DNA of 64,000 bases from Syntrophorhabdus sp. PtaB.Bin047 (lineage in GTDB: Bacteria; Desulfobacterota; Syntrophorhabdia; Syntrophorhabdales; Syntrophorhabdaceae): contig MVQP01000006.1 in NCBI GenBank assembly GCA_002067235.1, positions 70 through 64,069 on the forward strand, read 5' to 3'. Shown piece by piece: positions 33,076-58,080 of this stretch; the first letter of the stretch is position 1; every line of letters begins with the position of its first letter. The notes under the pieces are model-generated. The model searched no databases and had not been told where the DNA came from. It saw only the letters and a list, made by a program, of their open reading frames with translations. Position numbers and translations under genes: made by a program.

Positions 33076-34123
33076 ACTGATAAGGGAGTACCGTCCCGAG
33101 CAGTATCTTACCCGGAGGCCGTATGTGATCGCTGAGGCGGGTGTCAACCACGGGTGCGATATGGATATCGCCGCCCGAATGATAGAGGAGGCAAAGGAGG
33201 GCGGGGCCGACGCAATAAAATTCCAGACCTACAAGGCGGAGACGATAGCGTCGAAAGACTCCCCGTCCTACTGGGACCTGAGCAAGGAACCGACGGACAG
33301 CCAGTATGAGCTCTTCAAGAAATACGACAGGTTCTGGAAGAACGAATTCGAAGCTTTGAAGGACCGCTGCGACAGGGTGGGGATCGAGTTTCTGAGCACC
33401 CCTTTCGATGTCGAGTCGGCCGCCTTTCTGAACGACCTCATGGATGTCTTCAAGATATCGTCGTCGGATCTCAATAATAAACCCTTTGTCGAGTACCTGT
33501 GCGGTTTCGGAAAGCCGATACTCCTGTCCACGGGCGCGTCCTACATGTGGGAGGTGGAACAGTCGGTGAGCTGGATACAGGACAGGGGCAATCCCCTGGC
33601 CTTGCTCCACTGCGTGCTCAACTATCCCACGGATGACGCCAACGCGAACCTGGCCATGATCCTGGAATTGAGGCGCGTTTTCCCCTGCAACGCGATCGGC
33701 TATTCGGACCACACGCTGCCGGGTGAGATGAGGTGCCTGGAGACAGCCACGCTTCTGGGGGCTTCGGTGCTGGAAAAGCACTTTACCTACGACAAGACAC
33801 TTCCCGGGAACGATCATTATCACGCGATGGACAAGGAGGATCTCAGGCGTTTCAACGCACGGATGGAGAGCCTGTTCCTGATGCTGGGGCAGAGGTTGAA
33901 GCAGCCGCTCGCAAGCGAGGACAGTGCACGGAGGAATGCCAGGCGAAGCCTTGTGGCGGCGCGGACGATCCCGGCCGGGAAGACACTGGAGCAGGGGGAC
34001 CTGACGTGGAAGCGGCCAGGTCACGGCATCGACCCGAGGGATTACGACAGGGTGATCGGGAGAAAGGCCAGGGAGGAACTGGCGGAAGACACCGTTCTTC
34101 AGTGGAGCATGCTCGATGCCTGA
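33059..34123 (+). CDS. NeuB-family nonulosonic acid synthase (NeuB/PseI/LegI/SpsE-like) with SAF domain
   Basis: 'VIAEAGVNHGCDMDIAARMIEEAKEGGADAIKFQTY', 'GYSDHT', C-terminal SAF 'RRSLVAARTIPAGKTL'. Confidence 0.88.
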   Translation: MKRLAELIREYRPEQYLTRRPYVIAEAGVNHGCDMDIAARMIEEAKEGGADAIKFQTYKAETIASKDSPSYWDLSKEPTDSQYELFKKYDRFWKNEFEALKDRCDRVGIEFLSTPFDVESAAFLNDLMDVFKISSSDLNNKPFVEYLCGFGKPILLSTGASYMWEVEQSVSWIQDRGNPLALLHCVLNYPTDDANANLAMILELRRVFPCNAIGYSDHTLPGEMRCLETATLLGASVLEKHFTYDKTLPGNDHYHAMDKEDLRRFNARMESLFLMLGQRLKQPLASEDSARRNARRSLVAARTIPAGKTLEQGDLTWKRPGHGIDPRDYDRVIGRKAREELAEDTVLQWSMLDA

Positions 34124-35414
34124 TATCGTCTCGGAGATCGCCTCCTACCTCAGGCGCCTTTTTCCGATATGCCGCAGCATAACGGGAGAGGGAAACCGCG
34201 AGACGCTCCGCATCCTTCAGGAACTGGTGCCGTTGAAGGTCCTGGAATATCCTTCCGGGCAGAAGGTCTATGACTGGACCATTCCCCGGGAATGGAACAT
34301 CAGGGATGCCTGGATAAAGAACGCTTCAGGCGAGAAGATAGTTGATTTCCAGAGATCAAACCTTCACGTTGTCAGTTACAGCATACCCGTCCATGCCCGG
34401 ATGAAAAAAAGGGACCTTGTGGAACATCTCCATTTTCGGGAAGACCTGCCGTCCGCCATTCCTTACAGGACGACCTATTACAAAGAGAACTGGGGGTTTT
34501 GCCTCTCTCACGATGATTACATGAAACATTTCCGTGACGACGAGACGTACGAGGTGTTCATAGACTCGGAATTGAAGCAGGGCAGCCTGAGCGTCGGGGA
34601 ACTGACGATAAAGGGCAGGACGGATAAGGAGTATCTCATATCCACGTATATCTGCCATCCGTCCCTTGCCAACGACAACCTGACAGGCCCGGTGCTGACG
34701 GCATTCCTCGCGCGGGAGCTCCTCAGGGAAAAGACCAATTTCAGCTATCGTGTGGTCTTCGTCCCCGAGACCATAGGGGCGATAGCCTACTGCGCGAACA
34801 ACGAAGAGGCCATGAAGAGGATAGGGACGGGATTTGTCGTGTCGTCAGTGGGAGGTCCGGGCAAGGTTGGCTACCGCCAGAGCTGGCAGAAGGATTCCGT
34901 CGTCAATTCCGTCATCGAGGAGACATTCAGGGAGAAAGGGATTACCGACTACAAGGTCTATCCTTTCGACATACACGGCAGCGACGAGCGGCAATACTCT
35001 TCCCAGGGATTCAGGATCAACATCGCCAGCATCAACAAGGACAGGTTCTATGACTACCCGTACTACCACACCTCGCTCGATGACCTTGATTTTGTATCGG
35101 CTGAGAACGTGGCGTTCTGCCTCGACCTCCATGTTGCCGCACTCAGGAGCCTGGACAGGAACATCGTTTACCGGAACCTTTCTCCCAACTGCGAAGTGAT
35201 GCTCAGCAAACACGGCCTGTATGAGACGACGGGGGGAGGCCAGCTCCCTGTCTTCGGTACAAGGAATCGACAGGATCTCATTCTGTGGCTGCTATTCCAT
35301 TGCGACGGGACGAAGTCGCTGTGGGAGATCTCAAGGCTCCTCGACATGCCCGTCGGTCCGTTGTTCGATCTGGCGGAGGAACTGGCGAAGAGAAATCTCT
35401 TGGTGGAGAGTTAA
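34116..35414 (+). CDS. aminopeptidase-like-domain protein (DUF4910/DUF2172-type) with a C-terminal winged-helix-like tail
   Basis: 432 aa. 'CRSITGEGNRETL', 'YDWTIPREWN', 'ICHPSLANDNLTG' as I remember for this polysaccharide-locus-associated family. Not verified. Confidence 0.55.
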   Translation: MPDIVSEIASYLRRLFPICRSITGEGNRETLRILQELVPLKVLEYPSGQKVYDWTIPREWNIRDAWIKNASGEKIVDFQRSNLHVVSYSIPVHARMKKRDLVEHLHFREDLPSAIPYRTTYYKENWGFCLSHDDYMKHFRDDETYEVFIDSELKQGSLSVGELTIKGRTDKEYLISTYICHPSLANDNLTGPVLTAFLARELLREKTNFSYRVVFVPETIGAIAYCANNEEAMKRIGTGFVVSSVGGPGKVGYRQSWQKDSVVNSVIEETFREKGITDYKVYPFDIHGSDERQYSSQGFRINIASINKDRFYDYPYYHTSLDDLDFVSAENVAFCLDLHVAALRSLDRNIVYRNLSPNCEVMLSKHGLYETTGGGQLPVFGTRNRQDLILWLLFHCDGTKSLWEISRLLDMPVGPLFDLAEELAKRNLLVES

Positions 35415-45383: not shown

Positions 45384-46871
45384 ATGAACATATTGCTCGT
45401 CAACGTTCCTTCGAGACGAGGCAAAGGCGGATTCACACTTCCCCTTGGTCTCCTCTATGTGGGGGGCATCGTCGAGAGGTGCGGCCACAGGGCGCGGATA
45501 TTCGACCCCTATCTCTGCGACGCGGACCTTGGCGAGGACATCGTCGCCGCGCTGAGGCGGACGATCGAGGATTTCAACCCCCGCGTTGTCGGATTCGGGG
45601 GGATCTCCACATCCTATGGCAGGGCGAAGGAACTGAGCGCCTCCATACGGCGGGACCATCCGGAAATGGTCATGATAGCCGGCGGGGCGCTGTCCTCCGT
45701 GGCGGATCTTCTGTTGACGAAGACCGATGTCGATGTCGTGTTCCATGGCGAAACGGAGACGAGCCTGCCCGCTTTCCTCGATTCGCTTGAAAAGGGAACC
45801 GGTTTCGCCGGCCTGACCGGGATCTCCTATCGGTCAGCCGATGGAGTGGTCGGGACCCCGCCCGTCGAACAGATCGGCGATCTTGATACGATACCTTTTC
45901 CCGCGTATCACCTTGTGGAGCTCGACAGGTATTTCACTGATGTCAATGACTGGCTCGCGAGCTACGAGGTCAACCTGGAGAACCTGCCCGGCAAGGAAGA
46001 CATCCTCCGGCGGATTGAGGGCAAGAGGCGTTATATCCCCATCGTCAGCTCGCGGGGATGCACACACAGGTGCCTGTTTTGCTACAGGCACATGAAGGGC
46101 CACAGGCAGAACACCGTGGGCTACACGATGGCACACATGAAATTCCTCAGGGAGCATTACGGTGTGGAAGGCTTTCAGTTTTGCGATGAGCTGTTCAACG
46201 CGAAGAGATCCTGGGTCATGGATTTTTGCGATGGAGTGGAGCGCGAGAATCCGGGGGTATTTTACCTGATAGGGGGTGCCCGCGTAGACAGAGTGGATGA
46301 GGAGATGCTCCTGAGGCTGAAAGGAACGGGTTGTATCGAGATAAACTACGGACAGGAGTCCGGTTCCGATACCATTTTGAAGGAGTACCGCAAGGGAACG
46401 ACGGGGCGGCAGAACCGGGACGTCACGATCCTCACGACGAAAAAAGTGGGATTGGCGTGCCCCGTGCAGATCGTTATCGGCTCGCCGGGGGAAACGAACG
46501 ATACGATCGAGGAGACCATAGGCCTTCTCAAGGCTGTCGAGGCATATCAGTACTCCATCAACTACCTCATAGCCCTACCGGGAACACCTGTCTGGGATGT
46601 CGTCGAAGACAGAGGTCTTGTTCCCGATGTGGAAAAATATCTGGACGAGGTCGCCGACGTCGGCGGAGCGCCGCTGATTAACCTCACGACCGTGCCGGAC
46701 GATGTATGGAGGGGCTGGACATCGAGGATCAGGAGGGAGATGAGCATCGAGTACGTGAGGAGAAAGGGCCTCAAGGTCCACGACTTCGTCAATATGATAC
46801 TGATACCGCTCATACCCCGACGGCTCAAGAACATCATCAAGCGTTTACGCGGCCTGTACGGGAGGGGATAA
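45384..46871 (+). CDS. B12-binding-domain radical SAM protein (class B type)
   Basis: N-terminal 'ILLVNVPS...LPLGLLYVGG' cobalamin-binding-like domain. 'SSRGCTHRCLFCY' Cx3Cx2C. Confidence 0.85.
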   Translation: MNILLVNVPSRRGKGGFTLPLGLLYVGGIVERCGHRARIFDPYLCDADLGEDIVAALRRTIEDFNPRVVGFGGISTSYGRAKELSASIRRDHPEMVMIAGGALSSVADLLLTKTDVDVVFHGETETSLPAFLDSLEKGTGFAGLTGISYRSADGVVGTPPVEQIGDLDTIPFPAYHLVELDRYFTDVNDWLASYEVNLENLPGKEDILRRIEGKRRYIPIVSSRGCTHRCLFCYRHMKGHRQNTVGYTMAHMKFLREHYGVEGFQFCDELFNAKRSWVMDFCDGVERENPGVFYLIGGARVDRVDEEMLLRLKGTGCIEINYGQESGSDTILKEYRKGTTGRQNRDVTILTTKKVGLACPVQIVIGSPGETNDTIEETIGLLKAVEAYQYSINYLIALPGTPVWDVVEDRGLVPDVEKYLDEVADVGGAPLINLTTVPDDVWRGWTSRIRREMSIEYVRRKGLKVHDFVNMILIPLIPRRLKNIIKRLRGLYGRG

Positions 46872-46881
46872 GGCAGCAGAC

Positions 46882-48411
46882 GTGTCCAGGATCGCCACCA
46901 TTGGAAGGAACATCAGGTTCACAATCTTGAACCGTGTCGCATCCGTCGCCATCACCTTCTTTCTTTTCCCTTACATAGTCCGGGAATCGGGTCAGGAGGT
47001 GTATGGTGTCTTTCTCCTCGTCACCACAGTGACGGGATACTTTGGCCTCCTTGACCTCGGAGTCATGTCGGCGGTGACGAAGTACGTCTCCGAGTACAAC
47101 GGGAAAGGCGATCCCGCGGCGATCAACAGGATCGTCAGCGCTTCGCTTTCGTTCTATGTGCTCGTTGGTCTCGTGGGGGCGTTGTGCCTTCTAGGGTGCT
47201 CGATATATTTCGACCGTTTCTTCAAGATAGACCCCCGGAATGTCGCCCTGGTCAGGCAATTGTTCATCGTTGCCGCCGCATCTTCATTGCTGACCTGGCC
47301 GCTGAGCATATTCCGGGGAACGGTGCAGGGGTTGAACCGTTACGATGTTGAGGCTGTCGTGAATATTGTGGTGCTTTGCATGAACGCGCTGGGCGCCGTC
47401 ATCGTGTTCGGTACTGGGCGCGGGATAGTCCTTTACTTCACCCTCCTGCAGTCGCTCAACATAGCGGGCTGCATTGTGTTCTATGTTGTGTCGAAAAGGA
47501 TCGCGCGGCTCAAGGTATCCTTTCCGTATCTGGAGACGGAGACCTTCAAGTTCATATTCGGTTTCAGTTCCTTTGTGTTCCTGAGCTCCCTGGGGAACCT
47601 GTTCCTTTTCCAGGCGCACAACTTCATCATAGGATACTTTGTGTCTCTTTCCGCGGTGACGGTATACGCGGTGGCCTACAATATCCAGAACTATTTCCGC
47701 ACCATAAACTCGGCGATCGGAGGGCCGCCGTGGACCGTTGCGTCGGAGATGGAGGGCAGGAGGGATTATGACGGCCAGAGGACCCTGCTGTTCAAAGGGA
47801 CGAAATACATGTCCGCCATCATGGTGCCCGTTGTCCTCATAATGCTGTTCTTCGTGGAGCCCTTTGTCAACCACTGGGTTGGACCCGGTTTCGAAGAGAG
47901 CATCCTCCCGGCAAGGATAATCATACTTTTCTGGCTCCTCAACGGCACCGTGGAACCGGCCTCGGGTATGCTGTCCGCCAAGGGTATTGTGAAGCAGCCG
48001 CTCTACATTCAGATCGGGATGGCGGTATTCAACATACTGGTAGGCCTTGCCCTGATCAAGAGCCTTGGCATAATTGCGATGGCCATAGGGCTGACCCTTT
48101 CTTTCGTCCTGATAGGGGCGCCGCTCAACCTCCGGCTCTCGTTGAAGAGCCTCAATGTTCCCCTGTCGACGTACCTCAAGAGGGCTGTGAAGGGAAACAT
48201 TCCCCTGTACCTTTTCGTGGCGCTCCTTTCTTACTTGGTTTCCAGCAACTGGCAGCCGAAGAGCATCTATTCCACACTGATGGGGATGGGCGCGATATAC
48301 CTGGTTTCTCTGTTTCTGTACTATCTGGCGATCATGAACAGCGAAGAAAAGAGAGAAATAAGAAGGCTGGCGGGCGTAGAAGGCATCTATAACAGGGTCA
48401 CCTCGAGATGA
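46882..48411 (+). CDS. wzx: MOP-superfamily oligosaccharide flippase
   Basis: 509 aa with GTG start. About 12-14 TM segments; N-terminus 'NIRFTILNRVASVAITFFLFPYIV' is typical of Wzx-like proteins. Confidence 0.75.
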   Translation: MSRIATIGRNIRFTILNRVASVAITFFLFPYIVRESGQEVYGVFLLVTTVTGYFGLLDLGVMSAVTKYVSEYNGKGDPAAINRIVSASLSFYVLVGLVGALCLLGCSIYFDRFFKIDPRNVALVRQLFIVAAASSLLTWPLSIFRGTVQGLNRYDVEAVVNIVVLCMNALGAVIVFGTGRGIVLYFTLLQSLNIAGCIVFYVVSKRIARLKVSFPYLETETFKFIFGFSSFVFLSSLGNLFLFQAHNFIIGYFVSLSAVTVYAVAYNIQNYFRTINSAIGGPPWTVASEMEGRRDYDGQRTLLFKGTKYMSAIMVPVVLIMLFFVEPFVNHWVGPGFEESILPARIIILFWLLNGTVEPASGMLSAKGIVKQPLYIQIGMAVFNILVGLALIKSLGIIAMAIGLTLSFVLIGAPLNLRLSLKSLNVPLSTYLKRAVKGNIPLYLFVALLSYLVSSNWQPKSIYSTLMGMGAIYLVSLFLYYLAIMNSEEKREIRRLAGVEGIYNRVTSR

Positions 48412-48445: not shown

Positions 48446-49225
48446 ATGGTCTGCTTGAAAGAGAGGTTAAGGAACGGAGAGGTGCTCGTGGGCTCCTGGA
48501 TCACCCTGGCGCATCCGGCGATCGCCGAAATAATGGCCAGGGCCGGGTTTGACTGGCTGACGATAGACCTGGAACACAGTGTCATAACGATACGCGAGGC
48601 GGAGGAATTGATCCGCGTTATCGAGCTTTGCGGAGTTGCACCCCTGGTGCGGGTCTCGGCGAATGATCCTGTTCAGATCAAACGGGTCATGGATGCCGGC
48701 GCGCATGGGGTGATCGTCCCGATGGTCAATACGCCCGGCGAGGCGGCGGATGCGGTCGCCGCTGTGCAGTATCCACCGGCCGGGAGGCGCGGGGTGGGCC
48801 TCGCGCGCGCACAGGGGTACGGGACGGGATTCCGGCCATACCTGGAATGGCTGAGGGCGGATGCGGTGGTGATCGTTCAGGTCGAGCACGTCGATGCGGT
48901 GAACTGTCTGGAGGATATACTGTCTTTACCGGGTGTGGATGGGTATTTCATCGGACCCTATGACCTGTCGGCATCAATGGGCCTTGCGGGGGAATTTGAC
49001 CACCCGGAGATGGTCGGGGTGCTTGAGCGCATCAAGCGTGCAGGTGAGGATTTCGGAAAGCCGGGCGGCTTACATGTCGTTGAACCCGATACATCGAGAC
49101 TGGAAGAGTGCATAAACCAGGGGTTTCGCTTCATCGCGTACAGTTTGGACACCAGAATGCTGGACAATGCCTGCAGGACGGGGCTTTTAGCCGTCAGGGA
49201 GAGTGGGGCGGGACGCGAAGGATGA
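48446..49225 (+). CDS. HpcH/HpaI-family class II (pyruvate-dependent) aldolase
   Basis: 259 aa. 'GSWITLAHPAIAEIMARAGFDWLTIDLEH', 'IVQVEH', 'FIGPYDLS'. Confidence 0.85.
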   Translation: MVCLKERLRNGEVLVGSWITLAHPAIAEIMARAGFDWLTIDLEHSVITIREAEELIRVIELCGVAPLVRVSANDPVQIKRVMDAGAHGVIVPMVNTPGEAADAVAAVQYPPAGRRGVGLARAQGYGTGFRPYLEWLRADAVVIVQVEHVDAVNCLEDILSLPGVDGYFIGPYDLSASMGLAGEFDHPEMVGVLERIKRAGEDFGKPGGLHVVEPDTSRLEECINQGFRFIAYSLDTRMLDNACRTGLLAVRESGAGREG

Positions 49226-49874
49226 TACTCATCGGGGCAAGTCTCTGGCTGAAAGTGTCTTGTTCCGAGACGCGGGGAGACCTTATAGATTGGCGGACCT
49301 TCTTAAAGACGAATTGAATGATTGGATAGAAGGCTTCGTCAACTGTGTTCCGGGACGTACCGGTTCCATACTGCGACGGGCGTGGTTTAGCCGCAGACTG
49401 GCAGAGCTGGGACCGGGGTCGGTCTTTGAGGGGAGAGTGAGGATCGGGGGGTGCAAGAATATCAGGATCGGCAGGAGTTTTTCGGTCATGTCCAACTCGT
49501 CCCTCTGGGCGTGGAGGGGACATATTGAGATAGGAGATAGGGTATCGATGAACTCGAACGTGATCGTCGATGCCTGTGATGATGGAGTCATCAGGATCGG
49601 CAACGATGTGCTGATCGGACCGAACGTGGTGATGCGGGCCAGCAACCATGTGTACAAGTCGCCCGACAGGCCCATCAACCGGCAGGGACACACGGGGGGA
49701 ACAATAGTCGTGAGGGACGACGTGTGGATCGCATCGAATGTGGTTATTGTTCCAGGCGTGACCATAGGGGAGCATTCCGTGATCTCGGCATGCTCGCTGG
49801 TTTCGCATGATGTTGAACCGTGGACCGTCGTGGGCGGTGTCCCCGCCGCCGTGATCAAACGGCGCGAGCAATGA
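49203..49874 (+). CDS. left-handed beta-helix (hexapeptide) acyl/acetyltransferase
   Basis: Hexapeptide repeats 'IGDRVSMNSNVIVDA', 'IGNDVLIGPNVVM', 'VWIASNVVIVPGVTIGEHSVISACSLV'. Start uncertain; as tracked it overlaps the aldolase gene by 23 nt. Confidence 0.8.
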   Translation: MGRDAKDDTHRGKSLAESVLFRDAGRPYRLADLLKDELNDWIEGFVNCVPGRTGSILRRAWFSRRLAELGPGSVFEGRVRIGGCKNIRIGRSFSVMSNSSLWAWRGHIEIGDRVSMNSNVIVDACDDGVIRIGNDVLIGPNVVMRASNHVYKSPDRPINRQGHTGGTIVVRDDVWIASNVVIVPGVTIGEHSVISACSLVSHDVEPWTVVGGVPAAVIKRREQ

Positions 49875-49891
49875 ACAGAAAGGAGTGATAA

Positions 49892-50671
49892 TTGAACATT
49901 CTGGGAATAGTTCCAGCAAGGATGGCCTCGACGCGGTTTCCGAACAAGCCCATGGCGCCCATTCTGGGGATGCCGATGATAGGTCACGTCTATCATCGAT
50001 GCTGGTTATGTCCGAGCCTTTCAGACCTCTGGGTCGCGACCTGCGATCCTGAGATCGTGGAATACGTCGATTCCCTGGGCGGCAAGGCCGTCATGACTGC
50101 TGACACGCATCAGCGCGCCTCCGACAGGGTCGCTGAAGCTCTTCTCAAGATAGAGGCGGCGACAGGCGTTCCCGCAGACTACGTCGCGATGATCCAGGGT
50201 GACGAGCCGATGCTGGACCCCCGGATGATCGAGGAGCTTGCGGCCCCGGTCATGAAGGGCGGCAAGGTTGAGGTCGTGAACCTGATCATGAAGATCGAGT
50301 CCCGCGAGGAATTCGAGAATGCCAATGTTGTCAAGGTCGTGCTGGCCCAGGACGGTTCCGTCCTGTATTTCTCGCGCGAGCCCATTCCTTCCGGCAAGAA
50401 GTTCCAGGGTGACATCCCGATGTGGAAACAGCTGGGCATCATCCTGTTCAGCCGCGGGGCGCTCCTCGAGTACACGAGGATGACGCCCACTCCCCTTGAG
50501 ATCATCGAGTCCGTCGATATGAACCGCTTCCTGGAGCATGGAGTGAAGATCAAGGCGGTGCCTGTGGACTATCGCACTTTCGGGGTGGACATCCCGGGTG
50601 ACGTGAGGCTCGTTGAGCCGCTGCTGCGGGAAGACCCGGTGACCGGCAAGTATCTTCCGGATCGGGGATAA
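49892..50671 (+). CDS. KdsB-like CMP-(keto-deoxy sugar acid) cytidylyltransferase
   Basis: TTG start with AGGAG 7 nt upstream. 'GIVPARMASTRFPNKPM' and 'IQGDEP' are closer to the KdsB pattern than to NeuA. Confidence 0.8.
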   Translation: MNILGIVPARMASTRFPNKPMAPILGMPMIGHVYHRCWLCPSLSDLWVATCDPEIVEYVDSLGGKAVMTADTHQRASDRVAEALLKIEAATGVPADYVAMIQGDEPMLDPRMIEELAAPVMKGGKVEVVNLIMKIESREEFENANVVKVVLAQDGSVLYFSREPIPSGKKFQGDIPMWKQLGIILFSRGALLEYTRMTPTPLEIIESVDMNRFLEHGVKIKAVPVDYRTFGVDIPGDVRLVEPLLREDPVTGKYLPDRG

Positions 50672-50672
50672 C

Positions 50673-51653
50673 ATGAAGGAAGAAGACATCCGCAAACGGT
50701 CCACCCTGAACCGGTACCTTGAGCTTGTCAGGGAAGATGCCGCCAGACTTATCCGGGATGCGTCGGGGTTTCACCGGACCGCCTGTCCGGCCTGCGGCGG
50801 AAATGACCTTGCCCGTCAATTTGAGAAGTACGGCTTTCAGTACGAGCAGTGCAGGGTATGCGAGACCCTCTTTGTGAACCCCCGGCCGAAGTACGAGGAC
50901 CTGATGAGGATATACATCGATTCCCCATCGACACGGTACTGGGTGACGGAGTTCTTCCTTCCCATGGCGGAGACGAGGCGGGAGGTGATCTTCAAACCCA
51001 GGGCCCAATTTGTTGCCGAGCGTTTTCCGGAGGTCAGGTCCGGCAGGACGGCGGATATCGGAGCGGGATTCGGCCTGTTCCTGGAAGAGCTGAAGATACT
51101 CTGGCCCGGGTCGGACGTTGTGGCGATCGAGCCTTCCGTGGACATGGCCGGTATCTGCCGGAGCAAGGGCCTGACCGTGATCGAAGAGAGTCTGGAGGAT
51201 GTCCGGAACGCGGAAGGGTTCGATCTAATGACCGCTTTCGAGCTTTTCGAGCATCTCCATGATCCAGCCCCTTTCGTCGCAAAGGTGCACGAATTGCTGA
51301 GACCCGGGGGTTTCTTCTTTCTCACAACACTGAACGGCCTCGGATTCGATATACAGGTCCTGTGGGAGGGTTCAAAAAGCATCTTCCCCCCCAATCATCT
51401 GAATTTCTTCAATCCCGGCTCTATGGTGACGTTCCTTGAGAACAGGGGGTTTTCGGTGATCGAAGCGGCGACTCCCGGTCAGCTCGACTGGGACATCGTG
51501 GAGGGGCTCTACCGCAATGAAGGGGTCGATCCCGGGCGTTTTTTCAGCACCATTGCGCGGCATGGCACAGAGGATGCGAAGCGGGGTTTTCAGGAGTGGA
51601 TCCGGCGGAACAATTTCAGTTCCCACATGAGGATCATTGCGAGGAAGGTCTGA
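50673..51653 (+). CDS. class I SAM-dependent methyltransferase with N-terminal Zn-ribbon
   Basis: 'CPACGG...CRVCETLF' followed by 'ADIGAGFGLF' motif I. Confidence 0.8.
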   Translation: MKEEDIRKRSTLNRYLELVREDAARLIRDASGFHRTACPACGGNDLARQFEKYGFQYEQCRVCETLFVNPRPKYEDLMRIYIDSPSTRYWVTEFFLPMAETRREVIFKPRAQFVAERFPEVRSGRTADIGAGFGLFLEELKILWPGSDVVAIEPSVDMAGICRSKGLTVIEESLEDVRNAEGFDLMTAFELFEHLHDPAPFVAKVHELLRPGGFFFLTTLNGLGFDIQVLWEGSKSIFPPNHLNFFNPGSMVTFLENRGFSVIEAATPGQLDWDIVEGLYRNEGVDPGRFFSTIARHGTEDAKRGFQEWIRRNNFSSHMRIIARKV

Positions 51654-51654
51654 G

Positions 51655-52683
51655 ATGACGGGAGACACACTGAGAGTCGGGATAGCGGGTTACGGTGTTG
51701 TGGGGAAACGCAGACGGCAGTTCATCGACATACATCCCCGACTGGCGACGGTGGCGGTCTGTGATCAGAATTACGCGGCACCCGGAACGCTTATCGACGG
51801 AGTAAGGGCCTATTCAACGTACAGGCAGCTCCTCGAGGAACCGCTGGACGTGCTCTTTGTCTGCCTGCCGAACTACCTGGCGGCGGAGGTGACGATAGCC
51901 GGACTGGAGAGGGGATTGCACGTGTTCTGTGAAAAACCCCCCGGCCGGAATATCGAGGACGTGCTGGCGGTTCAACAGACAGAGAGGATGCATCCGGGAC
52001 TGGTCCTGAAGTACGGCTTCAACCACCGCTACCACGGTTCTGTTACCGAGGCCCTCAAGATCGTGCGCTCCGGTGAGCTTGGTGACATCATCAACCTCAG
52101 GGGTGTGTACGGAAAGAGCAAGATCATCCCCTTTTCAGGCGGATGGAGGTCAGAGAGGCGTTATGCCGGGGGCGGGGTCCTCCTCGACCAGGGTATCCAC
52201 ATGGTGGACCTGATGAGGCTCTATTGCGGCGATTTTGTTGAGATCAAGAGCTTCGTGGTGAATGACTACTGGAAACATGACGTGGAGGACAACGCGTATG
52301 CCCTGATGCGCAACAAGAAGGGACAGGTTGCCATCCTTCATTCTTCCGCCACCCAGTGGCAGCATCGCTTTGTCCTCGAGATCACCCTTGCGGACGGCTA
52401 TCTCGAACTGCGGGGGATCCTCTCGGGCTCCAAGAGCTATGGGGAAGAGCAGCTCATCGTCGGCAGGCGGGATGAATCCGATGTCGGGACCCTTCGAAGC
52501 GAGACCATCAAGTACCTTGACGATAACTCCTGGCGCGACGAGATCAATGAATTCGCGGACTCGGTCATCCACGGGAAACCGATCCAATCGGGAACAAGCG
52601 ATGACGCTCTGGCCACGATGCGTCTTGTTTATCAGATCTACAACGCGGACCCTCAATGGAAAGCGGCCTTCAACATTGAGTGA
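51655..52683 (+). CDS. Gfo/Idh/MocA-family NAD(P)-dependent oxidoreductase
   Basis: 'RVGIAGYGVVGKRR' Rossmann and the 'CEKP' motif. Confidence 0.85.
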   Translation: MTGDTLRVGIAGYGVVGKRRRQFIDIHPRLATVAVCDQNYAAPGTLIDGVRAYSTYRQLLEEPLDVLFVCLPNYLAAEVTIAGLERGLHVFCEKPPGRNIEDVLAVQQTERMHPGLVLKYGFNHRYHGSVTEALKIVRSGELGDIINLRGVYGKSKIIPFSGGWRSERRYAGGGVLLDQGIHMVDLMRLYCGDFVEIKSFVVNDYWKHDVEDNAYALMRNKKGQVAILHSSATQWQHRFVLEITLADGYLELRGILSGSKSYGEEQLIVGRRDESDVGTLRSETIKYLDDNSWRDEINEFADSVIHGKPIQSGTSDDALATMRLVYQIYNADPQWKAAFNIE

Positions 52684-52702
52684 GGCAAAGGGGAAGGACG
52701 TC

Positions 52703-53422
52703 ATGAAGAAGGACCTTCATAACCTCAATGCTCTCGTCACGGGCGGCACAAGGGGCATAGGGCGCGCTATAGCAAAGAGGCTCAGCGACGGTGGAGCAAA
52801 CGTGACGATAACGGGTACGCGACCCGCAAGCCCCTCCCCAGACGGCATCGCCTGCAAGACCGTGGATTTCCTTGATCCCCGCAGCCGGGACGCCTTTGTC
52901 CAGGAGGTGGCGGACATGGACCTCGACATACTCGTGAACAACGCGGGTATCAACAGGATAAGCGATTTCGAGGGGATCGATCCCGCCGATTATGAAAGCA
53001 TATACCAGGTCAATGTCTTCGCCCCCTTCCTCCTGTGCAGGGCCGTCATCCCCGTCATGAAACGAAAGGGGTGGGGCCGGATCGTCAACATAAGCTCCAT
53101 CTTCGGGAAGGTGAGCAAGGAATGCAGGGCGTCATACTCAGCCAGCAAGTTCGCTCTCGATGGAATGACGGCGGCGTTGGCCGCGGAGGTCGCGAGATTC
53201 GGGATCCTGGCGAACTGCGTTGCCCCGGGGTTCGTAGATACGGAGTTGACACGGACCGTGCTGGGAGATGCAGGGATGGCGGAGATGGCCTCAAGGATCC
53301 CCATGGGGCGCCTGGGAACTCCTGAAGAGATAGCCGCTTTCGTCGCATGGCTTGCCGGTCCGGAGAATACCTACATCAGCGGTCAGAACATTGCTGTAGA
53401 CGGGGGTTTTACAAGGGTTTGA
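52703..53422 (+). CDS. short-chain dehydrogenase/reductase (FabG-like)
   Basis: 'VTGGTRGIGRAI', 'NNAG', 'YSASKFAL'. Start at ATG 52703; the longer tracked ORF is rejected. Confidence 0.88.
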   Translation: MKKDLHNLNALVTGGTRGIGRAIAKRLSDGGANVTITGTRPASPSPDGIACKTVDFLDPRSRDAFVQEVADMDLDILVNNAGINRISDFEGIDPADYESIYQVNVFAPFLLCRAVIPVMKRKGWGRIVNISSIFGKVSKECRASYSASKFALDGMTAALAAEVARFGILANCVAPGFVDTELTRTVLGDAGMAEMASRIPMGRLGTPEEIAAFVAWLAGPENTYISGQNIAVDGGFTRV

Positions 53423-53468
53423 AAAAGGCGCCGTACATCTATCGTGGCGGAAGGGGAGGGGACCTGTC

Positions 53469-54437
53469 GTGAAAGACCCGACCGCCGTGGCTGTTGCCTC
53501 ACGATCCTTCTCCCGGCATCCCGTGTTGCGCGAAGAACTCATGTCCCGCTATTCCCGTGTTCGTTTCAATGACTCGGGGGAGACGCTCGCAGGGGAAAAT
53601 CTGGTAGGCTTTCTCGCTGGCTCCGTCAAGGCAATAACGGCCCTGGAGCCTCTTGACGAAAAGACACTGTCCTCGCTGCCGGACCTCAGGGTCATCGCAA
53701 AGTACGGGGTGGGTCTCGACATGATCGATCTTGACGCCATGGAGCGCCTCGGTATATTGCTTGGTTGGACGGGAGGTGTGAACAGGCGCTCTGTGGCCGA
53801 GCTGACCCTTTCATCGATGATCGCCCTTCTGCACAGACTGCCGGAATCAGGCAGCGATCTCAGATCAGGCGTCTGGAGACAGATAAGGGGCAGACAGTTG
53901 ACGGACAAGACTGTTGGTATAATCGGATGCGGCAACATAGGAAAGGACTTGATCATCCTCCTGAAACCATTCGGGTGCCGGATCCTGGCAAACGATATAG
54001 TTGATTACGCGGAATTCTACCGGGAGCATGGAGTGACCCCGGTCGGCCTGGAGGAGTTGCTGAGCAGCGCCGACGTGGTGACGCTGCACGTACCCCTGAA
54101 CGGCTCAACGCGTAACATGATCAACGCCGGGAGCATGGCATTGATGAAGGAAGGCGCATGCTTGATCAACATGGCCCGGGGTGGTCTCGTTGATGAAACT
54201 GGGTTGTTGGAGATGCTTCGGGAGCACCGGCTGGGCGGGGCGGCCCTCGATGTCTTCAACAGCGAACCGCCGGACAATCCCGGGCTTCTCAATCTGCCCA
54301 ATGTCATCGTGACATCGCATATCGGAGGGAGTACGGAGGAGGCGGTCCTGGCAATGGGAAGGGCGGCCATAGACGGCCTCGAGAACGCGGCCAGGGTGAG
54401 CAGCATAGTCCCGGACTACCTGCGCGTGTCGCGGTGA
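53469..54437 (+). CDS. D-isomer-specific 2-hydroxyacid dehydrogenase family protein
   Basis: GTG start. 'VGIIGCGNIGKDL', 'ARGGLVDE', 'TSHIGGST'. Confidence 0.85.
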   Translation: MKDPTAVAVASRSFSRHPVLREELMSRYSRVRFNDSGETLAGENLVGFLAGSVKAITALEPLDEKTLSSLPDLRVIAKYGVGLDMIDLDAMERLGILLGWTGGVNRRSVAELTLSSMIALLHRLPESGSDLRSGVWRQIRGRQLTDKTVGIIGCGNIGKDLIILLKPFGCRILANDIVDYAEFYREHGVTPVGLEELLSSADVVTLHVPLNGSTRNMINAGSMALMKEGACLINMARGGLVDETGLLEMLREHRLGGAALDVFNSEPPDNPGLLNLPNVIVTSHIGGSTEEAVLAMGRAAIDGLENAARVSSIVPDYLRVSR

Positions 54438-54464
54438 GGCAGGACGGCACGGAAAGACTGGAGG

Positions 54465-55079
54465 GTGTGGATGCAACATCTGAGAGAAATGTACAGCAGT
54501 TCAAAGAATGCGTCTGAGTATTTTCGGTCTTACTTTTCGCACATAAGTGACCTCCTGATGGATCTTGATACCGGGGCCATCAACAGCGTCATTGAGTGCT
54601 TCCTGAAGGCGAGAGAGGAGAGGAAGACGATATTCTTTGCGGGTAACGGGGGCAGCGCCGCGACGGCATCCCATTTCGCGCAGGACCTCGGAGAGGTGGG
54701 AAGAAAGGCCGGGAAACGCGGTTTCAAAACGCTGAGCCTCACCGAGAATGTCTCCCTTCTCAGCGCCGTGGGAAACGACTACGGGTTTGAGCAGGTCTTC
54801 ACCGTTCCTCTCGTCGAATTGTTCAACGCAGGGGACGTTCTCGTCGCGATATCGGCAAGCGGCAACAGCCCGAATGTCATCAAAGCCATCGAATTCGCCC
54901 GCGACGCCGGGGGTGAGACGGTGGGTCTCGTCGGATTTGACGGGGGCAGGATGAAAGACATGTGCGATCATGTTATCCACGTGCGGACGGATGTCGGCTC
55001 CTACGGTCCCGTGGAGGATGTGCACATGGCGATGGACCACCTGATCACGTCTTATCTTATCCTGAGGCTTTCCGAATAG
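54465..55079 (+). CDS. SIS-domain sugar-phosphate isomerase (GmhA-like)
   Basis: 'IFFAGNGGSAATASHFAQDL' and 'ISASGNSPNV' as in phosphoheptose isomerases. Confidence 0.8.
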   Translation: MWMQHLREMYSSSKNASEYFRSYFSHISDLLMDLDTGAINSVIECFLKAREERKTIFFAGNGGSAATASHFAQDLGEVGRKAGKRGFKTLSLTENVSLLSAVGNDYGFEQVFTVPLVELFNAGDVLVAISASGNSPNVIKAIEFARDAGGETVGLVGFDGGRMKDMCDHVIHVRTDVGSYGPVEDVHMAMDHLITSYLILRLSE

Positions 55080-55138
55080 ATGAAGCGTCCAGAGAGGACC
55101 GGGTCCGATCAGGTGGGGCGCTCAAGGAGGCATCGCCG

Positions 55139-56242
55139 ATGAAGGCAGATCTGACGATAAGGTCGCACCTGCGGGATTATGGTGTCCATTTCGTTGGAGA
55201 GCTGGCGGTTCCGCTGCGGGAGCTTGCCGACGGACACGCCTTCTTCGTGATAGACGCGCTGGTGTGGAGAACCTACGCCCCGGTGTTTCAGGCTGTGGTC
55301 GGCGAGGATCGCCTCCTGACCATCGAAGCCGTGGAAACGAACAAGACGCTCGACAAATGCCGAGAGATCATTGAAACTCTTGTTGACCGCCGCGTTCGCC
55401 GGGGCGACAGACTGGTCGCGGTGGGAGGCGGGATCATACAGGACGTGACGGCCTTCACGGCTTCCATAACGTACAGGGGGATCGAATGGTCTTTTGTTCC
55501 GACTACACTCCTTGCCCAGGCGGACAGCTGCATCGGGAGCAAGACATCCATCAATCTTGGCGACAGGAAGAATCTTGTGGGTAATTTCTATCCTCCCTCG
55601 GATGTATACATCGACACAGGCTTCCTTGAATCTCTCTCCGTTGATGACATCAAGTCCGGTATCGGGGAGATCCTCCATTATTACATCTACGCAAACGATG
55701 ACGCCCTTGACGATCTGTTGGGGGACTACGCGACCTTGATCCGGGACCGCGGGCTGCTCTCGACGCATATCCGGAGAAGCCTCGAGATCAAGCGCTCCGT
55801 GATCGAGGCAGACGAGTTCGATCGGGGAGAGCGTAACAAGTTCAATTATGGCCATACCTTCGGGCACGCCCTGGAATCCGCTACAGGTTATGCCGTCAAG
55901 CACGGTCAGGCCGTAACGGTGGGAATGGACCTTGCCAACTACATGTCAACGACCATGGGTTTAATGAGTGATGAACGCTTTCAGGACCTCCACCGGAGAC
56001 TGTCTGTCAATTTTCCGGAATACGATCTCGCCACGATCGACCTCGAGGCGTACTGCGAAGCCCTTTCAAAGGACAAGAAGAACATGGGCGATAATGTAGG
56101 ATGCATACTCGCGCAGGACGTCGGCATTCTTTTCAAGCGGCAATTGCCCATGGATGAGACATTCAGGGAAACCGTCCGCAGGTATTTTCTCGAATTCTCG
56201 CCCGGGAAGGACCGGGACGTCCGGCGCGCCGATCCACGATGA
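55139..56242 (+). CDS. 3-dehydroquinate synthase-fold enzyme (sugar-phosphate cyclase / NAD-dependent oxidoreductase family)
   Basis: 'VAVGGGIIQDVTAF', 'KSGIGEILH', 'NYGHTFGHALE', 'KHGQAVTVGM' match the DHQS nucleotide and metal-ligand regions. AGGAGG lies upstream of ATG 55139. Confidence 0.75.
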   Translation: MKADLTIRSHLRDYGVHFVGELAVPLRELADGHAFFVIDALVWRTYAPVFQAVVGEDRLLTIEAVETNKTLDKCREIIETLVDRRVRRGDRLVAVGGGIIQDVTAFTASITYRGIEWSFVPTTLLAQADSCIGSKTSINLGDRKNLVGNFYPPSDVYIDTGFLESLSVDDIKSGIGEILHYYIYANDDALDDLLGDYATLIRDRGLLSTHIRRSLEIKRSVIEADEFDRGERNKFNYGHTFGHALESATGYAVKHGQAVTVGMDLANYMSTTMGLMSDERFQDLHRRLSVNFPEYDLATIDLEAYCEALSKDKKNMGDNVGCILAQDVGILFKRQLPMDETFRETVRRYFLEFSPGKDRDVRRADPR

Positions 56243-58080
56243 TCCGTCTTTGCCACGCGGCGGTATCGTCCGCAACGCTCAAAAGGAAGAGGTTCTTCAG
56301 GGAAACGGGCGATTCCGGCCAATGGCTGTACCTGGGACGGGACTACCTGTGCTTCAGAAATTGGCGGCAGGCCCTGGGGCCTTCATGGGAGCACAGGGAA
56401 TACAGCAACGAACTGCAGTCCCTGGCCCATAAGTGGCGCGTGCCCTACCTTGACTGGGTCACCGGGCTTGGAAGGAAGAACAACACTCTGGCATGGTGGA
56501 CCTCGTCCGTCTCGGAGCGGAACACCTACGGCAGTTCCCTCTATCATTCGATCTGCTACCTCAGCATCGGGCTTTCCGTGCTGGCCTCGGAGAGACCTCC
56601 CTCGCTGGTTGTGATCGAGAGCTCCGCCGTGCTTCATGCTCTTGCGGGGCATCCAGATCTTGCGGGAAGGGTGCATGTGCTGGATTCGCGAACCAACCGT
56701 CTGAAGGAGATGTGCCGATGGATAGCGTCGTGGGCCCGGTACTTCATCAGGACGGCGGGGTCAGTCTGGAACGCATACGTGACCAGGAGCCCGGGCGCAA
56801 CCCCGGAGGAGGAGAAAGACCGGCCAAGGGTGCTTATCCACACCTGCATAGACGATAGCTACTTCGGAGAGGACGGCGTTGCGAGGGACCGCTACTTCGG
56901 GACATTGGCCCGCGAGCTTCGCCACCGCGGTTACGACGTTGTGGTCCTGCCGTGGATATACAGCCTGCGGCGTTCCCAGCGCGAGGCCTTCCGATGGTTC
57001 CGGCAACATCCCGGGGAGTACCTCCTGCCTGAGGATTTTTGCTCCCCCCGGGACTACGTCTGGGCCGCGGGGATCGTTATGCGACAGAGCTTCATGCTGA
57101 AGGGACAGCACGTTTTTCTCGGAATGGATATCACGGGGCTTGTTCGGGAGGCCTGCCGGCAGCAGGGAAGCAGGACGGAGACCGCGAGGTTCGTTCTTTA
57201 CTACAGGTTGGTGCGGCACCTCCTGAACCGCCGGGTGCGGTTGGACCGCTTCATAGACATGCATGAGAACATGGTCACCGAAAAACCCCAAATAATGGCT
57301 TTTCGCGAGTTTATGCCCTGGGTCACGCTTGTCGGTTTCCAGCACTACAGCGAGAGCATTCCCCTCATGCTGTGCCTGTTCACCACGCCGGAGGAGGCCG
57401 AATTTGCTCCTCACCCGGACTACATCGTATGCAATTCGCCGCACATGCTTTCCAGGATGGAGCAGATGGGTTTTCCCCGGGATAAGCTCAGGGCAGGTCC
57501 GTCACTGCGTTACCAGCATCTGATTGGCAAACCGGCGTCCGCCGCCCCCGAAAGTAAAAAGGTCCTGGTGGTCCTGCCCCTGGGCAGGGACTATACGGCT
57601 GAGATGATGGACCTTCTTCTGGAGGGTTTCAGGGAACCGGAGGGTCTGGAGTTCTGGTTGAAACCTCATCCCATGCTTGACGAGAAGGAACTACGGACGA
57701 TCACCAGGGGTATTCCGGAGCATTTCAGCGTGGTAGAGGGCAATATGGACCAGTGGCTTGCGCGGGCCGCATGCGTCGTGGTCTCCGGCAGTACCTCTTC
57801 CTTTGAGGCGGCGCTTGCCGGCATACCTGTCGTGGTGGTGGGCAGGAGGACGGATCTTGATCTCAACCCGCTCAGCTGGTTCTCCGAGTTTGCGCCGGCC
57901 GTACACTCACCGGCGGAGCTTCGGGACGAGGTGTTGCATTCTCTGAGCCTGACCGGGAAGCAGATGGGCGCTCTGAGCGCCTGGGCCGAAAAGATGCGTG
58001 AACGCGCCATCTCGGCGATCACGGACGAGACCGTGGGGGCCTTTATGGAACAGCGGGGTGAAAAGAGGCGTGCATCATGA
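56239..58080 (+). CDS. large hypothetical protein with a GT-B-like C-terminal half (candidate glycosyl/ulosonic-acid transferase)
   Basis: 613 aa with ATGA overlap to the DHQS-like gene. The C-terminal 'KKVLVVLPLG...ACVVVSGSTSSFEAALAGIPVVVVG' pattern resembles the nucleotide-sugar-binding Rossmann half of GT-B enzymes. Confidence 0.45.
   Translation: MIRLCHAAVSSATLKRKRFFRETGDSGQWLYLGRDYLCFRNWRQALGPSWEHREYSNELQSLAHKWRVPYLDWVTGLGRKNNTLAWWTSSVSERNTYGSSLYHSICYLSIGLSVLASERPPSLVVIESSAVLHALAGHPDLAGRVHVLDSRTNRLKEMCRWIASWARYFIRTAGSVWNAYVTRSPGATPEEEKDRPRVLIHTCIDDSYFGEDGVARDRYFGTLARELRHRGYDVVVLPWIYSLRRSQREAFRWFRQHPGEYLLPEDFCSPRDYVWAAGIVMRQSFMLKGQHVFLGMDITGLVREACRQQGSRTETARFVLYYRLVRHLLNRRVRLDRFIDMHENMVTEKPQIMAFREFMPWVTLVGFQHYSESIPLMLCLFTTPEEAEFAPHPDYIVCNSPHMLSRMEQMGFPRDKLRAGPSLRYQHLIGKPASAAPESKKVLVVLPLGRDYTAEMMDLLLEGFREPEGLEFWLKPHPMLDEKELRTITRGIPEHFSVVEGNMDQWLARAACVVVSGSTSSFEAALAGIPVVVVGRRTDLDLNPLSWFSEFAPAVHSPAELRDEVLHSLSLTGKQMGALSAWAEKMRERAISAITDETVGAFMEQRGEKRRAS

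Follow-up and report, generated by a model that had tools for sequence, protein, structure and literature searches.

Two conserved gene modules for a possible PEP-independent route to CMP-activated keto-sugar acids in a Syntrophorhabdus surface-glycan locus

Introduction

What does a KdsB-like cytidylyltransferase activate when the gene beside it encodes a pyruvate aldolase? The pathway to cytidine monophosphate (CMP)-activated 3-deoxy-manno-octulosonate (Kdo) runs through an isomerase (KdsD), a phosphoenolpyruvate (PEP)-dependent synthase (KdsA), a phosphatase (KdsC) and the CMP-Kdo synthetase KdsB. In Syntrophorhabdus sp. PtaB.Bin047, a run of nine genes places a KdsB-like cytidylyltransferase (here termed CT) among an HpcH/HpaI-type aldolase, an isomerase, three dehydrogenases and an AroB-like relative of dehydroquinate synthase (DHQS). 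This block lies in the stretch analyzed here, termed the window: 64,000 nucleotides of contig MVQP01000006.1 (assembly GCA_002067235.1, positions 70 to 64,069 of the forward strand). A preliminary description of the window had read the block as a possible linear pathway, in which the aldolase would take over the PEP-dependent condensation and the other enzymes would tailor its product for activation.

Judged from its sequence, the block seems equipped to make one or two unusual acidic sugars and couple them to CMP, with none of the enzymes that usually serve Kdo or sialic acids. Our reading, tentative and held with slightly less than even confidence, is that it serves the PEP-independent synthesis of one or more non-Kdo, CMP-activated keto-sugar acids, and that it does so through two conserved, separable modules that have been joined in a surface-glycan operon.

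Results and discussion

All nine genes of the preliminary description were recovered as plus-strand open reading frames (ORFs) with the domains that it had named, as judged by Pfam and NCBIfam. With the genes that continue the run on either side, they are:

46882-48411, plus strand: Wzx-type flippase (Polysacc_synt/MatE)
48446-49225, plus strand: HpcH/HpaI aldolase (PF03328 HpcH_HpaI, E = 8e-39, 134 bits)
49203-49874, plus strand: hexapeptide-repeat O-acyltransferase (PF00132 Hexapep)
49892-50671, plus strand: KdsB-like cytidylyltransferase, CT (PF02348 CTP_transf_3, E = 2e-44)
50673-51653, plus strand: zinc-ribbon S-adenosylmethionine (SAM) methyltransferase, MT (Methyltransf_23, E = 6e-21; zinc ribbon CPACG...CRVCE)
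51655-52683, plus strand: Gfo/Idh/MocA oxidoreductase, Gfo (Pfam)
52703-53422, plus strand: classical short-chain dehydrogenase/reductase, SDR (adh_short, E = 4e-47)
53469-54437, plus strand: D-2-hydroxyacid dehydrogenase, 2HDH, resembling 3-phosphoglycerate dehydrogenase (PGDH) (2-Hacid_dh_C, E = 2e-54)
54465-55079, plus strand: GmhA-like SIS isomerase (SIS_2)
55139-56242, plus strand: AroB-like (DHQS-like) enzyme (DHQ_synthase and DHQS_C domains; TIGR04425, 430 bits)
56239-58080, plus strand: protein of 613 aa with a glycosyltransferase-B (GT-B) fold (distant TIGR04326 relative)

Within the block, adjacent genes overlap by up to 23 nt or are separated by up to 59 nt, and a promoter and terminator scan inside the block gave no signal beyond chance. 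The mechanically called ORFs of the Gfo, SDR and AroB-like genes start further upstream (51637, 52328 and 54962), and for the SDR and AroB-like genes the shorter starts are favored by Pfam and homolog alignments. The run extends past the nine genes, with the flippase 34 nt upstream and the 613-aa gene sharing its first 4 nt with the last of the AroB-like gene.

We compared the block with two sets of loci. For the first, one genome per species was scanned for relatives of CT, and the best 80 of 313 were kept: one near-identical protein (99%, CAYYKG010000002.1, from an uncultured Syntrophorhabdus metagenome-assembled genome, MAG) and 79 homologs from other species. This CT-anchored set comprises 81 loci, 49 of them with full flanks. 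The second, independent of the CT anchor, came from a metagenome scan with the AroB-like protein and comprises 80 loci (41-62% identity), of which 56 had enough sequence to place the SDR and 24 had flanks good enough for gene counts. ORFs in all loci were called heuristically, selected with weight on conservation and then clustered across loci.

The aldolase stands beside CT in 72 of the 81 loci, spread over some 20 bacterial and archaeal lineages, and in 48 of the 49 with full flanks, mostly directly upstream of CT, with a stop codon that often overlaps the CT start. The functional link between these two genes that had been suspected at the outset thus holds widely, and the block itself recurs as a unit in other genomes. 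Bacterial carriers of CT belong to the Desulfobacterota, Chloroflexota, Bacteroidota, Campylobacterota, Nitrospirota, Omnitrophota, Elusimicrobia, KSB1, phyla of the candidate phyla radiation (CPR), Planctomycetota and Firmicutes (Syntrophomonas), and archaeal carriers include Methanoregula and Hadarchaeia. Four minimal loci (L030, L045, L073 and L043) add only an acetyltransferase, an extended SDR (c3b) and a methyltransferase to the pair. Among Campylobacterota, both aldolase (65-78%) and CT (77-83%) are orthologous in loci with and without the further module, which marks it as an add-on. The hexapeptide acyltransferase, which in NCBIfam comes closest to sugar O-acetyltransferases without reaching any cut-off, is a variable accessory found in just 22 of the 81 loci; MT, which directly follows CT in 33 loci, probably O-methylates the acid. 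No aminotransferase is consistently linked to the block in related loci, so its product is probably a non-amino sugar acid. In the first module, then, we propose that a class II pyruvate aldolase would join pyruvate to an aldehyde to give a 3-deoxy-2-ulosonic acid, which CT would couple to CMP, with the methyl- and acetyltransferases decorating hydroxyls.

Around the pair, ORF clustering distinguished three gene-set flavors. The majority of loci (flavor A) have aldolase, CT, 2HDH, an extended SDR (c3a), a "cyclase"-family hydrolase (c7) and a HAD phosphatase; flavor B1, seen in the window and 12 others of the first set, has aldolase, CT, MT, Gfo, SIS, 2HDH, SDR and the AroB-like gene; and flavor B2 (L020, L046 and L081) has CT, MT, Gfo, variably SIS, 2HDH and an IMPase-like phosphatase, with neither SDR nor AroB-like gene. 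The oxidative genes also occur without the aldolase. A KdsB-like CT is embedded in the oxidative module of L114, L132 and L098, with no aldolase within up to 10 kb on each side; in L129 and L161, which lack an aldolase, the cytidylyltransferase is of a different PF02348 family (CT') and a relative of the 613-aa protein comes next; and L085 combines CT', a xylose-isomerase-fold protein, SDR, MT, 2HDH, c3a and a HAD domain fused to a 613-aa-like protein, again with no aldolase. Taken together, these six loci make the module look self-sufficient with any cytidylyltransferase. Gene counts in the 24 AroB-anchored loci were 21 for Gfo, 20 for 2HDH, 13 for SIS, 12 each for aldolase and KdsB-like CT, three for CT' and zero for both HAD and IMPase; a cytidylyltransferase is present in most of the AroB-anchored loci with enough flanking sequence. 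We conclude that isomerase, dehydrogenases and DHQS-fold enzyme form a separable module and, contrary to the preliminary description, probably do not tailor the aldol product: aldolase and CT exist without them, and the set exists without the aldolase.

What this second module might do is suggested by genes that accompany it elsewhere. A member of the 6-phosphogluconolactonase family (PF01182) occupies the c7 slot in L062/63/65, stands beside SIS, Gfo, 2HDH, SDR and AroB genes in L120, L124 and L127, and lies nearby in L129, L156 and L161; these lactonase-family genes show the DER...DGHxAS motif of Pgl and not of NagB. A phospho-lactonase in relatives implies that a sugar phosphate is oxidized at C1, which is impossible for an aldol product, and we assign this step to Gfo or c3a as the putative sugar-phosphate C1 dehydrogenase. 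Gfo is 61-73% identical in related loci, and its closest entries in the PDB are inositol 2-dehydrogenase along with C3-oxidizing and C1-oxidizing enzymes. The best PDB matches of 2HDH are 3-phosphoglycerate dehydrogenases; PGDH and PdxB oxidize C2 of omega-phospho-aldonates, and 2HDH is predicted to act likewise as a phospho-aldonate 2-dehydrogenase. It co-occurs with a phosphatase or an AroB-like gene in 38 of the 42 full loci. The top NCBIfam matches of SIS are phosphoheptose isomerases (TIGR00441, 117 bits against a cut-off of 209), its PDB matches are GmhA entries and then DiaA, and it keeps the catalytic His and the phosphate-binding SxSGxSxN, with Asp at the position of the catalytic Glu; its predicted role is conversion of a ketose phosphate, probably sedoheptulose-7-phosphate, to an aldose phosphate.

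Read as a sequence of reactions, the GmhA-like isomerase would convert a ketose phosphate, most likely sedoheptulose-7-phosphate, to a heptose-7-phosphate; Gfo would oxidize C1 to give a 7-phospho-heptonolactone; a lactonase, of the kind found in relatives and not in the window, would open this to 7-phospho-heptonate; and 2HDH would oxidize C2, yielding 2-keto-heptonate 7-phosphate, the 3-hydroxy analogue of 3-deoxy-arabino-heptulosonate 7-phosphate (DAHP). In flavor B1, the AroB-like enzyme would then eliminate the phosphate by the oxidation, elimination and reduction chemistry of dehydroquinate synthase, and the neighboring SDR would reduce the resulting ketone, whereas in flavors A and B2 a plain phosphatase would hydrolyze the phosphate off. 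B1 loci would then yield either a 7-deoxy-hept-2-ulosonic acid or, should the enzyme cyclize as well, a quinate-like carbocycle; the downstream GT-B protein would probably transfer the sugar. The B module has been joined to local aldolase-CT pairs at least twice, L040 and L053 having a Campylobacterota-type CT and a divergent AroB-like gene, and such repeated joining suggests functional synergy over chance.

In the linear pathway of the preliminary description, SIS would supply an aldose phosphate, from which the aldolase would make a DAHP- or Kdo8P-like acid with pyruvate; the phosphate would be lost through the DHQS-like enzyme (through a phosphatase in sister loci), and the product would be tailored by the dehydrogenases, MT and acyltransferase and activated by CT. 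We judge this pathway unlikely. It explains the adjacency of aldolase and CT; its order of SIS, aldolase, phosphatase and CT parallels KdsD, KdsA, KdsC and KdsB; the AroB-like enzyme keeps the DHQS residues that bind the DAHP carboxylate and phosphate; and the aldolase is present in half of the AroB-anchored loci counted. However, it gives no role to Gfo, 2HDH or the recurrent phospho-lactonases, as the aldol product lacks an oxidizable hemiacetal; the Gfo, 2HDH, SDR and AroB-like set occurs with a cytidylyltransferase and no aldolase in L114, L132, L129 and L161; the phosphate-removing enzyme is tracked by 2HDH and not by the aldolase; and erythrose-4-phosphate would need no dedicated isomerase. 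The earlier interpretation thus stands with regard to the aldolase-CT pair, the distinctness of CT, the lack of a KdsA homolog in the loci searched and the recurrence of the block, and gives way with regard to linear tailoring of the aldol product.

Three further schemes for the dehydrogenases were considered and rejected. Supply of hydroxypyruvate to the aldolase, by a PGDH-like enzyme and a phosphatase acting on 3-phosphoglycerate, fails as a general explanation because a DHQS-like enzyme cannot substitute for a phosphohydroxypyruvate phosphatase and because the lactonases imply a larger sugar phosphate; it is possible in loci with only 2HDH and HAD (L075). A reverse direction of the dehydrogenase and lactonase steps, from acid to aldose, was rejected on thermodynamics, and decarboxylative shortening of the 2-keto acid to feed the aldolase was rejected for want of a thiamine-dependent decarboxylase.

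The AroB-like enzyme exceeds the cut-off of TIGR04425 (430 against 400 bits), a family whose curated name is 'AroB-related putative sugar phosphate phospholyase (cyclizing)', and falls below that of the aroB equivalog TIGR01357 (262 against 305 bits), with glycan genes as its neighbors. Its PDB matches are led by true DHQS (130-164 bits), ahead of DOIS, EEVS and DDGS (ValA 100 bits, DDGS 80 bits). The DHQS active-site set (recognized by motif, in A. nidulans numbering, R130, D146, K152, N162, E194, K250, R264, N268, H271, H275, H287 and K356) is invariant in 12 members of the family, K197 being His in nine and Lys in three. Closeness to true DHQS and retention of the active site argue for a DAHP-like substrate, a C7 2-keto acid 7-phosphate. 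In 53 of 56 metagenome loci an SDR gene immediately precedes the AroB-like gene, and the SDR is the predicted ketoreductase partner of that enzyme. After 2HDH, the loci end in one of three interchangeable ways, with HAD, IMPase, or AroB-like enzyme plus SDR, and no HAD or IMPase phosphatase of these types was found in the 13 CT-anchored B1 loci, the entire window or the 24 AroB-anchored loci. From this mutual exclusion, the AroB-like/SDR pair appears to take the place of the phosphatase.

It is conceivable that the enzyme performs the full dehydroquinate synthase reaction, giving a hydroxylated, quinate-like cyclitol carboxylic acid that is CMP-activated and installed as a carba-sugar, its tertiary alpha-hydroxy acid center imitating the anomeric center of an ulosonic acid. 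All DHQS catalytic residues are conserved, K197 is retained in some members, the enol-pyranose intermediate of DHQS cyclizes spontaneously, the curators of TIGR04425 chose the word 'cyclizing', and the SDR could reduce a ring ketone. We nevertheless doubt this outcome, since AroB-type and phosphatase-type loci draw on common CT, MT, Gfo and GT-B families, since glycosyl transfer needs the ring oxygen that cyclization would replace, and since we know of no precedent for a CMP-carbasugar. Use of the same four families in B1 and B2 loci, which would accommodate the change of a hydroxyl to hydrogen more easily than loss of the ring oxygen, leads us to consider the 7-deoxy acid roughly twice as likely as the carbocycle.

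Several points weigh against the two-module reading as a whole. The loci were sampled by two anchors, CT and the AroB-like protein, mostly from MAG and metagenome contigs with heuristic ORFs, and every pathway step rests on homology and gene neighborhood. The DHQS residues were numbered by motif on the A. nidulans scheme; the E. coli KdsA query was a reconstructed sequence, and so was the E. coli KdsB reference in the stretches outside one alignment. The structures nearest to Gfo oxidize C2 or C3 as often as C1, SIS falls below the GmhA cut-off and has Asp in place of the catalytic Glu, and the window has no lactonase gene. The conserved DHQS residues would fit equally well a DAHP-like acid that the aldolase made from pyruvate and erythrose-4-phosphate, and the aldolase does accompany the AroB-like module in 12 of the 24 unbiased loci. 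The window also holds a single CT of this type and lacks CT', the cytidylyltransferase that usually accompanies the oxidative module, which makes any link between the modules a guess: possibly one CT activates both acids; possibly the 3-hydroxy acid is remodeled by the aldolase, through epimerization at C3/C4 or through a retro-aldol/aldol swap with pyruvate; or possibly the linear model applies, with Gfo, 2HDH and the lactonases in other roles.

The earlier suggestion that CT is not an ordinary KdsB is supported by its scores, its identity and its motifs. The motif ARMASTRFPNKPM, cited in the preliminary description, was confirmed. CT exceeds the cut-off of NF009905 (272 against 255 bits) and also passes NF003952, both 'subfamily' models named 3-deoxy-manno-octulosonate cytidylyltransferase, and falls below the kdsB equivalog TIGR00466 (141 against 155 bits) and NF003948 (173 against 281). 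It is 51-69% identical to the 79 homologs from other species, with a family median of 62%, and 33-41% identical to E. coli KdsB (a partly reconstructed reference) and KpsU, the latter its closest PDB match. In alignments with E. coli KdsB/KpsU, CT retains the motifs for nucleotide and metal binding (PAR..S.R.P.KP, QGDEP, YFSR..IP and GVD.P.D). In contrast, three motifs of the sugar half differ from KdsB, with the same change in at least 90% of the family. Among them, RH.GIY and E.LEQLR of KdsB, residues that presumably contact Kdo, give way to the consensus KQ...I and ESVDMxR (at least 90% of 79 members). A search with the reconstructed E. coli KdsA sequence found no homolog in the window or in 84 loci, in keeping with the missing KdsA-type step that had been noted, and a plasmid collection held only canonical kdsB (at most 38% to CT) and aroB (at most 35%) and no family member with a known glycan. 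We regard CT as a member of a distinct family that would make a CMP-activated acid. It is very unlikely that CT is a capsule-type, KpsU-like CMP-Kdo synthetase surrounded by unrelated glycan genes: the two subfamily models and the KpsU match speak for this, but the equivalog score, the identities, the altered sugar-side motifs, the synteny with an aldolase instead of Kdo genes and the lack of KdsA in the loci searched speak against it, as does the occurrence of the family in archaea (Methanoregula, Hadarchaeia), in Syntrophomonas and in CPR bacteria such as Saccharibacteria, all of which presumably lack lipopolysaccharide.

The aldolase is likewise set apart from its catabolic relatives. Its scores lie far below the equivalog cut-offs of HpaI (187 against 369 bits), GarL (174 against 407) and RhmA (161 against 441); YfaU and HpaI group together, outside the clade formed by its 65-member family, and its median identity is 34-35% to YfaU/HpaI and 51% within the family. 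It shares the fold of HpaI, GarL and YfaU/RhmA and keeps the catalytic H45 and R70 and the metal ligands E149 and D175 (HpaI numbering), but carries family-specific residues beside those ligands, H148 (a His after the metal Glu) and Y172 (a Tyr before the metal Asp), and differs in its biosynthetic gene context. A check on whether it clusters with the catabolic HpaI/YfaU enzymes, which the preliminary description had called for, returned a separate clade, and the aldolase is a candidate synthase of a 3-deoxy-2-ulosonic acid. That the block degrades a sugar acid is scarcely credible: the HpcH family is mostly catabolic, and dehydrogenase, lactonase and aldolase recall Entner-Doudoroff logic, but the genes are flanked by a flippase, glycosyltransferases, a cytidylyltransferase, methyl-, acetyl- and carbamoyltransferases and a NeuB/NeuA set, the aldolase falls outside the catabolic clade, and we saw no transporter, kinase or regulator of catabolic type.

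Where the activated acid goes is suggested by the genes on either side. The adjoining flippase points to a product destined for a surface glycan; in 15 related loci, ORFs of about 500 aa that form one cluster stand immediately ahead of the aldolase; this cluster is also labeled flippase by sequence, although it is separate from the window's own flippase in the clustering. The 613-aa protein scores 79 bits on TIGR04326 against a cut-off of 250, and a relative in L015, which shares its GT-B fold family by profile, scores 458. Its AlphaFold model (pLDDT 93) shows a GT-B fold with an extra N-terminal domain, and a fold search returned only generic hits, to UDP-GlcNAc 2-epimerase/NeuC, GT1 enzymes, BshA and a capsule polymerase. 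In 28 of the 49 full loci a relative is encoded at a distance of 4-9 kb from CT, mostly downstream and nearly always together with the add-on module, and the GT-B proteins of L020 and L046 score 276-355 bits on a profile of the window's protein. On its modeled fold and its position, the 613-aa protein is a candidate CMP-acid transferase or a NeuC-like nucleotide-sugar hydrolase. Two homologs are fused to a HAD phosphatase, P0165 (830 aa, L085:10001-12493) and P0202 (810 aa). These fusions resemble those of trehalose-6-phosphate or sucrose-6-phosphate synthase and phosphatase, and the analogy hints at a GT-B protein that acts on a phosphorylated substrate.

Set beside the Kdo pathway, the block has in common a SIS-fold isomerase, a phosphorylated acid that would later be dephosphorylated and a PF02348 cytidylyltransferase with KdsB nucleotide and metal motifs. 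It differs in that no KdsA-type synthase was found, any C3 unit being added by a metal-dependent pyruvate aldolase; in that its SIS is GmhA-like and not KdsD-like; in that CT has 'KQ' for 'RH' and 'ESVDMxR' for 'ExLEQLR'; and in that phosphate removal in the window would fall to a DHQS-like lyase and not to a HAD phosphatase. With the nonulosonic acid routes (NeuC/NeuB/NeuA, Pse, Leg and Kdn) it shares the logic of a free sugar, addition of a C1-C3 keto acid portion, CTP activation and transfer, as well as a NeuC-related GT-B protein in the locus and methyl or acetyl decoration, yet the block has neither a NeuB-type PEP-dependent synthase nor a consistently linked aminotransferase. The AroB-like enzyme has the fold of AroB and of the sugar-phosphate cyclases (DOIS, EEVS, DDGS) and is closer to true DHQS than to the cyclases of sedoheptulose-7-phosphate, but unlike AroB it belongs to TIGR04425, stands outside a shikimate context, is paired with an SDR and swaps with phosphatases in sister loci. 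The predicted series from sugar phosphate through phospho-lactone and phospho-aldonate to 2-keto acid phosphate matches that of Zwf and Pgl followed by PGDH/PdxB-type 2-oxidation, and Pgl-family lactonases (in relatives) and a PGDH-like dehydrogenase are common to both. Unlike in the Zwf/Entner-Doudoroff route, the first dehydrogenase is Gfo-type or an extended SDR, and the keto acid would be kept and CMP-activated instead of being dehydrated or cleaved.

To our knowledge, no oxidative route to an ulosonic acid of glycans has been described, and a full-text search, which leaves most subscription journals uncovered, returned neither a description of these gene sets nor any assignment of a product or pathway. 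Curated NCBI names do already mark the neighborhood, TIGR04425 as above and TIGR04326 as a 'surface carbohydrate biosynthesis protein'. If our reading is right, many uncultured anaerobes, Bacteroidota, Campylobacterota, CPR bacteria and methanogens bear acidic surface sugars whose structure and biosynthesis are unknown; a class II pyruvate aldolase would serve as an ulosonic-acid synthase; a sugar phosphate would be converted to a 2-keto sugar acid oxidatively; and a dehydroquinate synthase homologue in the place of a phosphatase would mean nucleotide-independent deoxygenation or formation of a carbocycle. The names "3-deoxy-manno-octulosonate cytidylyltransferase", "2-dehydro-3-deoxyglucarate aldolase" and "3-dehydroquinate synthase" are probably wrong for these families. 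A bolder version has a GT-B 'pseudo-glycosyltransferase' placing a CMP-activated, carbocyclic counterpart of an ulosonic acid on the surface of many bacteria and archaea. We think it improbable; if true, it would bring both a new class of building block to glycans and a new class of carbasugar to the nucleotide-activated sugars. Among carriers in culture, Hydrosulfovibrio ferrireducens CB1MN has the full block (L010) and Syntrophomonas wolfei subsp. methylbutyratica a phosphatase-type locus (L038); Sulfurimonas sp. CS5 (L040) is a third.

Other observations on the modules and their surroundings

Within the oxidative module, the window's gene order (SDR, 2HDH, SIS) differs from that of most relatives (SIS, 2HDH, SDR; compared with L002-L010). 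These three window proteins are 34-48% identical to those of other B1 loci, and CT, MT, Gfo and the AroB-like enzyme are 54-69% identical; an SDR (67%) and a 2HDH (60%) of the window type recur in L005 (Syntrophorhabdaceae) alone. The differing order and identities suggest a mosaic assembly of the module. The CT' family, found at L129:4461-5219, L161:7444-8196, L085:5027-5797 and L090:7815-8567, has no similarity to the window's CT that BLAST can find; the members in L129, L161 and L085 are 54-74% identical to one another, that in L090 about 32%. It lies in aldolase-free modules of the Gfo/2HDH/SDR/AroB-like or the 2HDH/c3a/HAD kind. Six short metagenome contigs (L108, L118, L123, L125, L145 and L165), on which no KdsB-like CT was detected, share the order 2HDH, Gfo, SIS, SDR, AroB, two further genes, cyclase and aldolase, followed in the variant of L145 by a protein with a polysialyltransferase-like domain (PF07388).

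The block is part of a plus-strand run of about 35 kb (approximately 28.4-63.3 kb), all of whose genes share one strand and which we take as a single surface-glycan locus; bases 1-28,000 of the window hold unrelated housekeeping genes (acyl-CoA metabolism, IlvD, NAD kinase, RecN and PmbA). The locus begins with an Fe-dependent alcohol dehydrogenase (ADH), a DegT aminotransferase, two nucleotidyltransferases, NeuB, a Cj1295-like protein and a MaoC-SDR fusion; continues with an N-acetyltransferase, two radical-SAM enzymes, methyltransferases, a carbamoyltransferase, the Wzx flippase and the nine-gene block; and ends with the 613-aa protein, a methyltransferase, a second DegT, a GT2, a weakly Wzy-like protein and a DUF218 protein. 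The separate NeuB-type route that had been noted in this locus is indeed there, NeuB (33059-34123) being paired with its own NeuA-like cytidylyltransferase (32359-33075) in a sub-cluster about 15 kb upstream of the block, which itself contains no NeuB.

Several genes of this upstream part deserve mention in their own right:

28441-34123, plus strand: Fe-dependent ADH and DegT aminotransferase directly upstream of a 551-aa NTP_transf_3/DUF6938 protein, the NeuA-like cytidylyltransferase and NeuB
34116-35414, plus strand: DUF4910/DUF2172/HTH_47 protein of the Cj1295 type
37066-38778, plus strand: ORF of 570 aa with just faint Asparaginase_C and Acid_PPase matches
39792-41018, plus strand: radical-SAM/SPASM enzyme
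41688-43460, plus strand: ORF of 590 aa
43457-45247, plus strand: carbamoyltransferase
45384-46871, plus strand: B12-binding radical-SAM enzyme

The pairing of ADH with an aminotransferase resembles KdnB/KdnA logic, in which a free ulosonic acid is oxidized and then aminated, and by this analogy the product of the NeuB route may be a nonulosonic acid with an extra amino group. Proteins of the Cj1295 type are associated with the decoration of flagellin nonulosonic acids in Campylobacter. Neither the 570-aa nor the 590-aa ORF has a Pfam family above threshold, and both are possible novel transferases. Carbamoyltransferase genes also adjoin CT in L020, L040 and L081. At the other end of the window, on the minus strand (30-2137), a STAND/AAA_22 NTPase with a C-terminal SH3_3 domain lies beside a staphylococcal-nuclease/Ada-zinc protein, and the two may form a defense gene pair.

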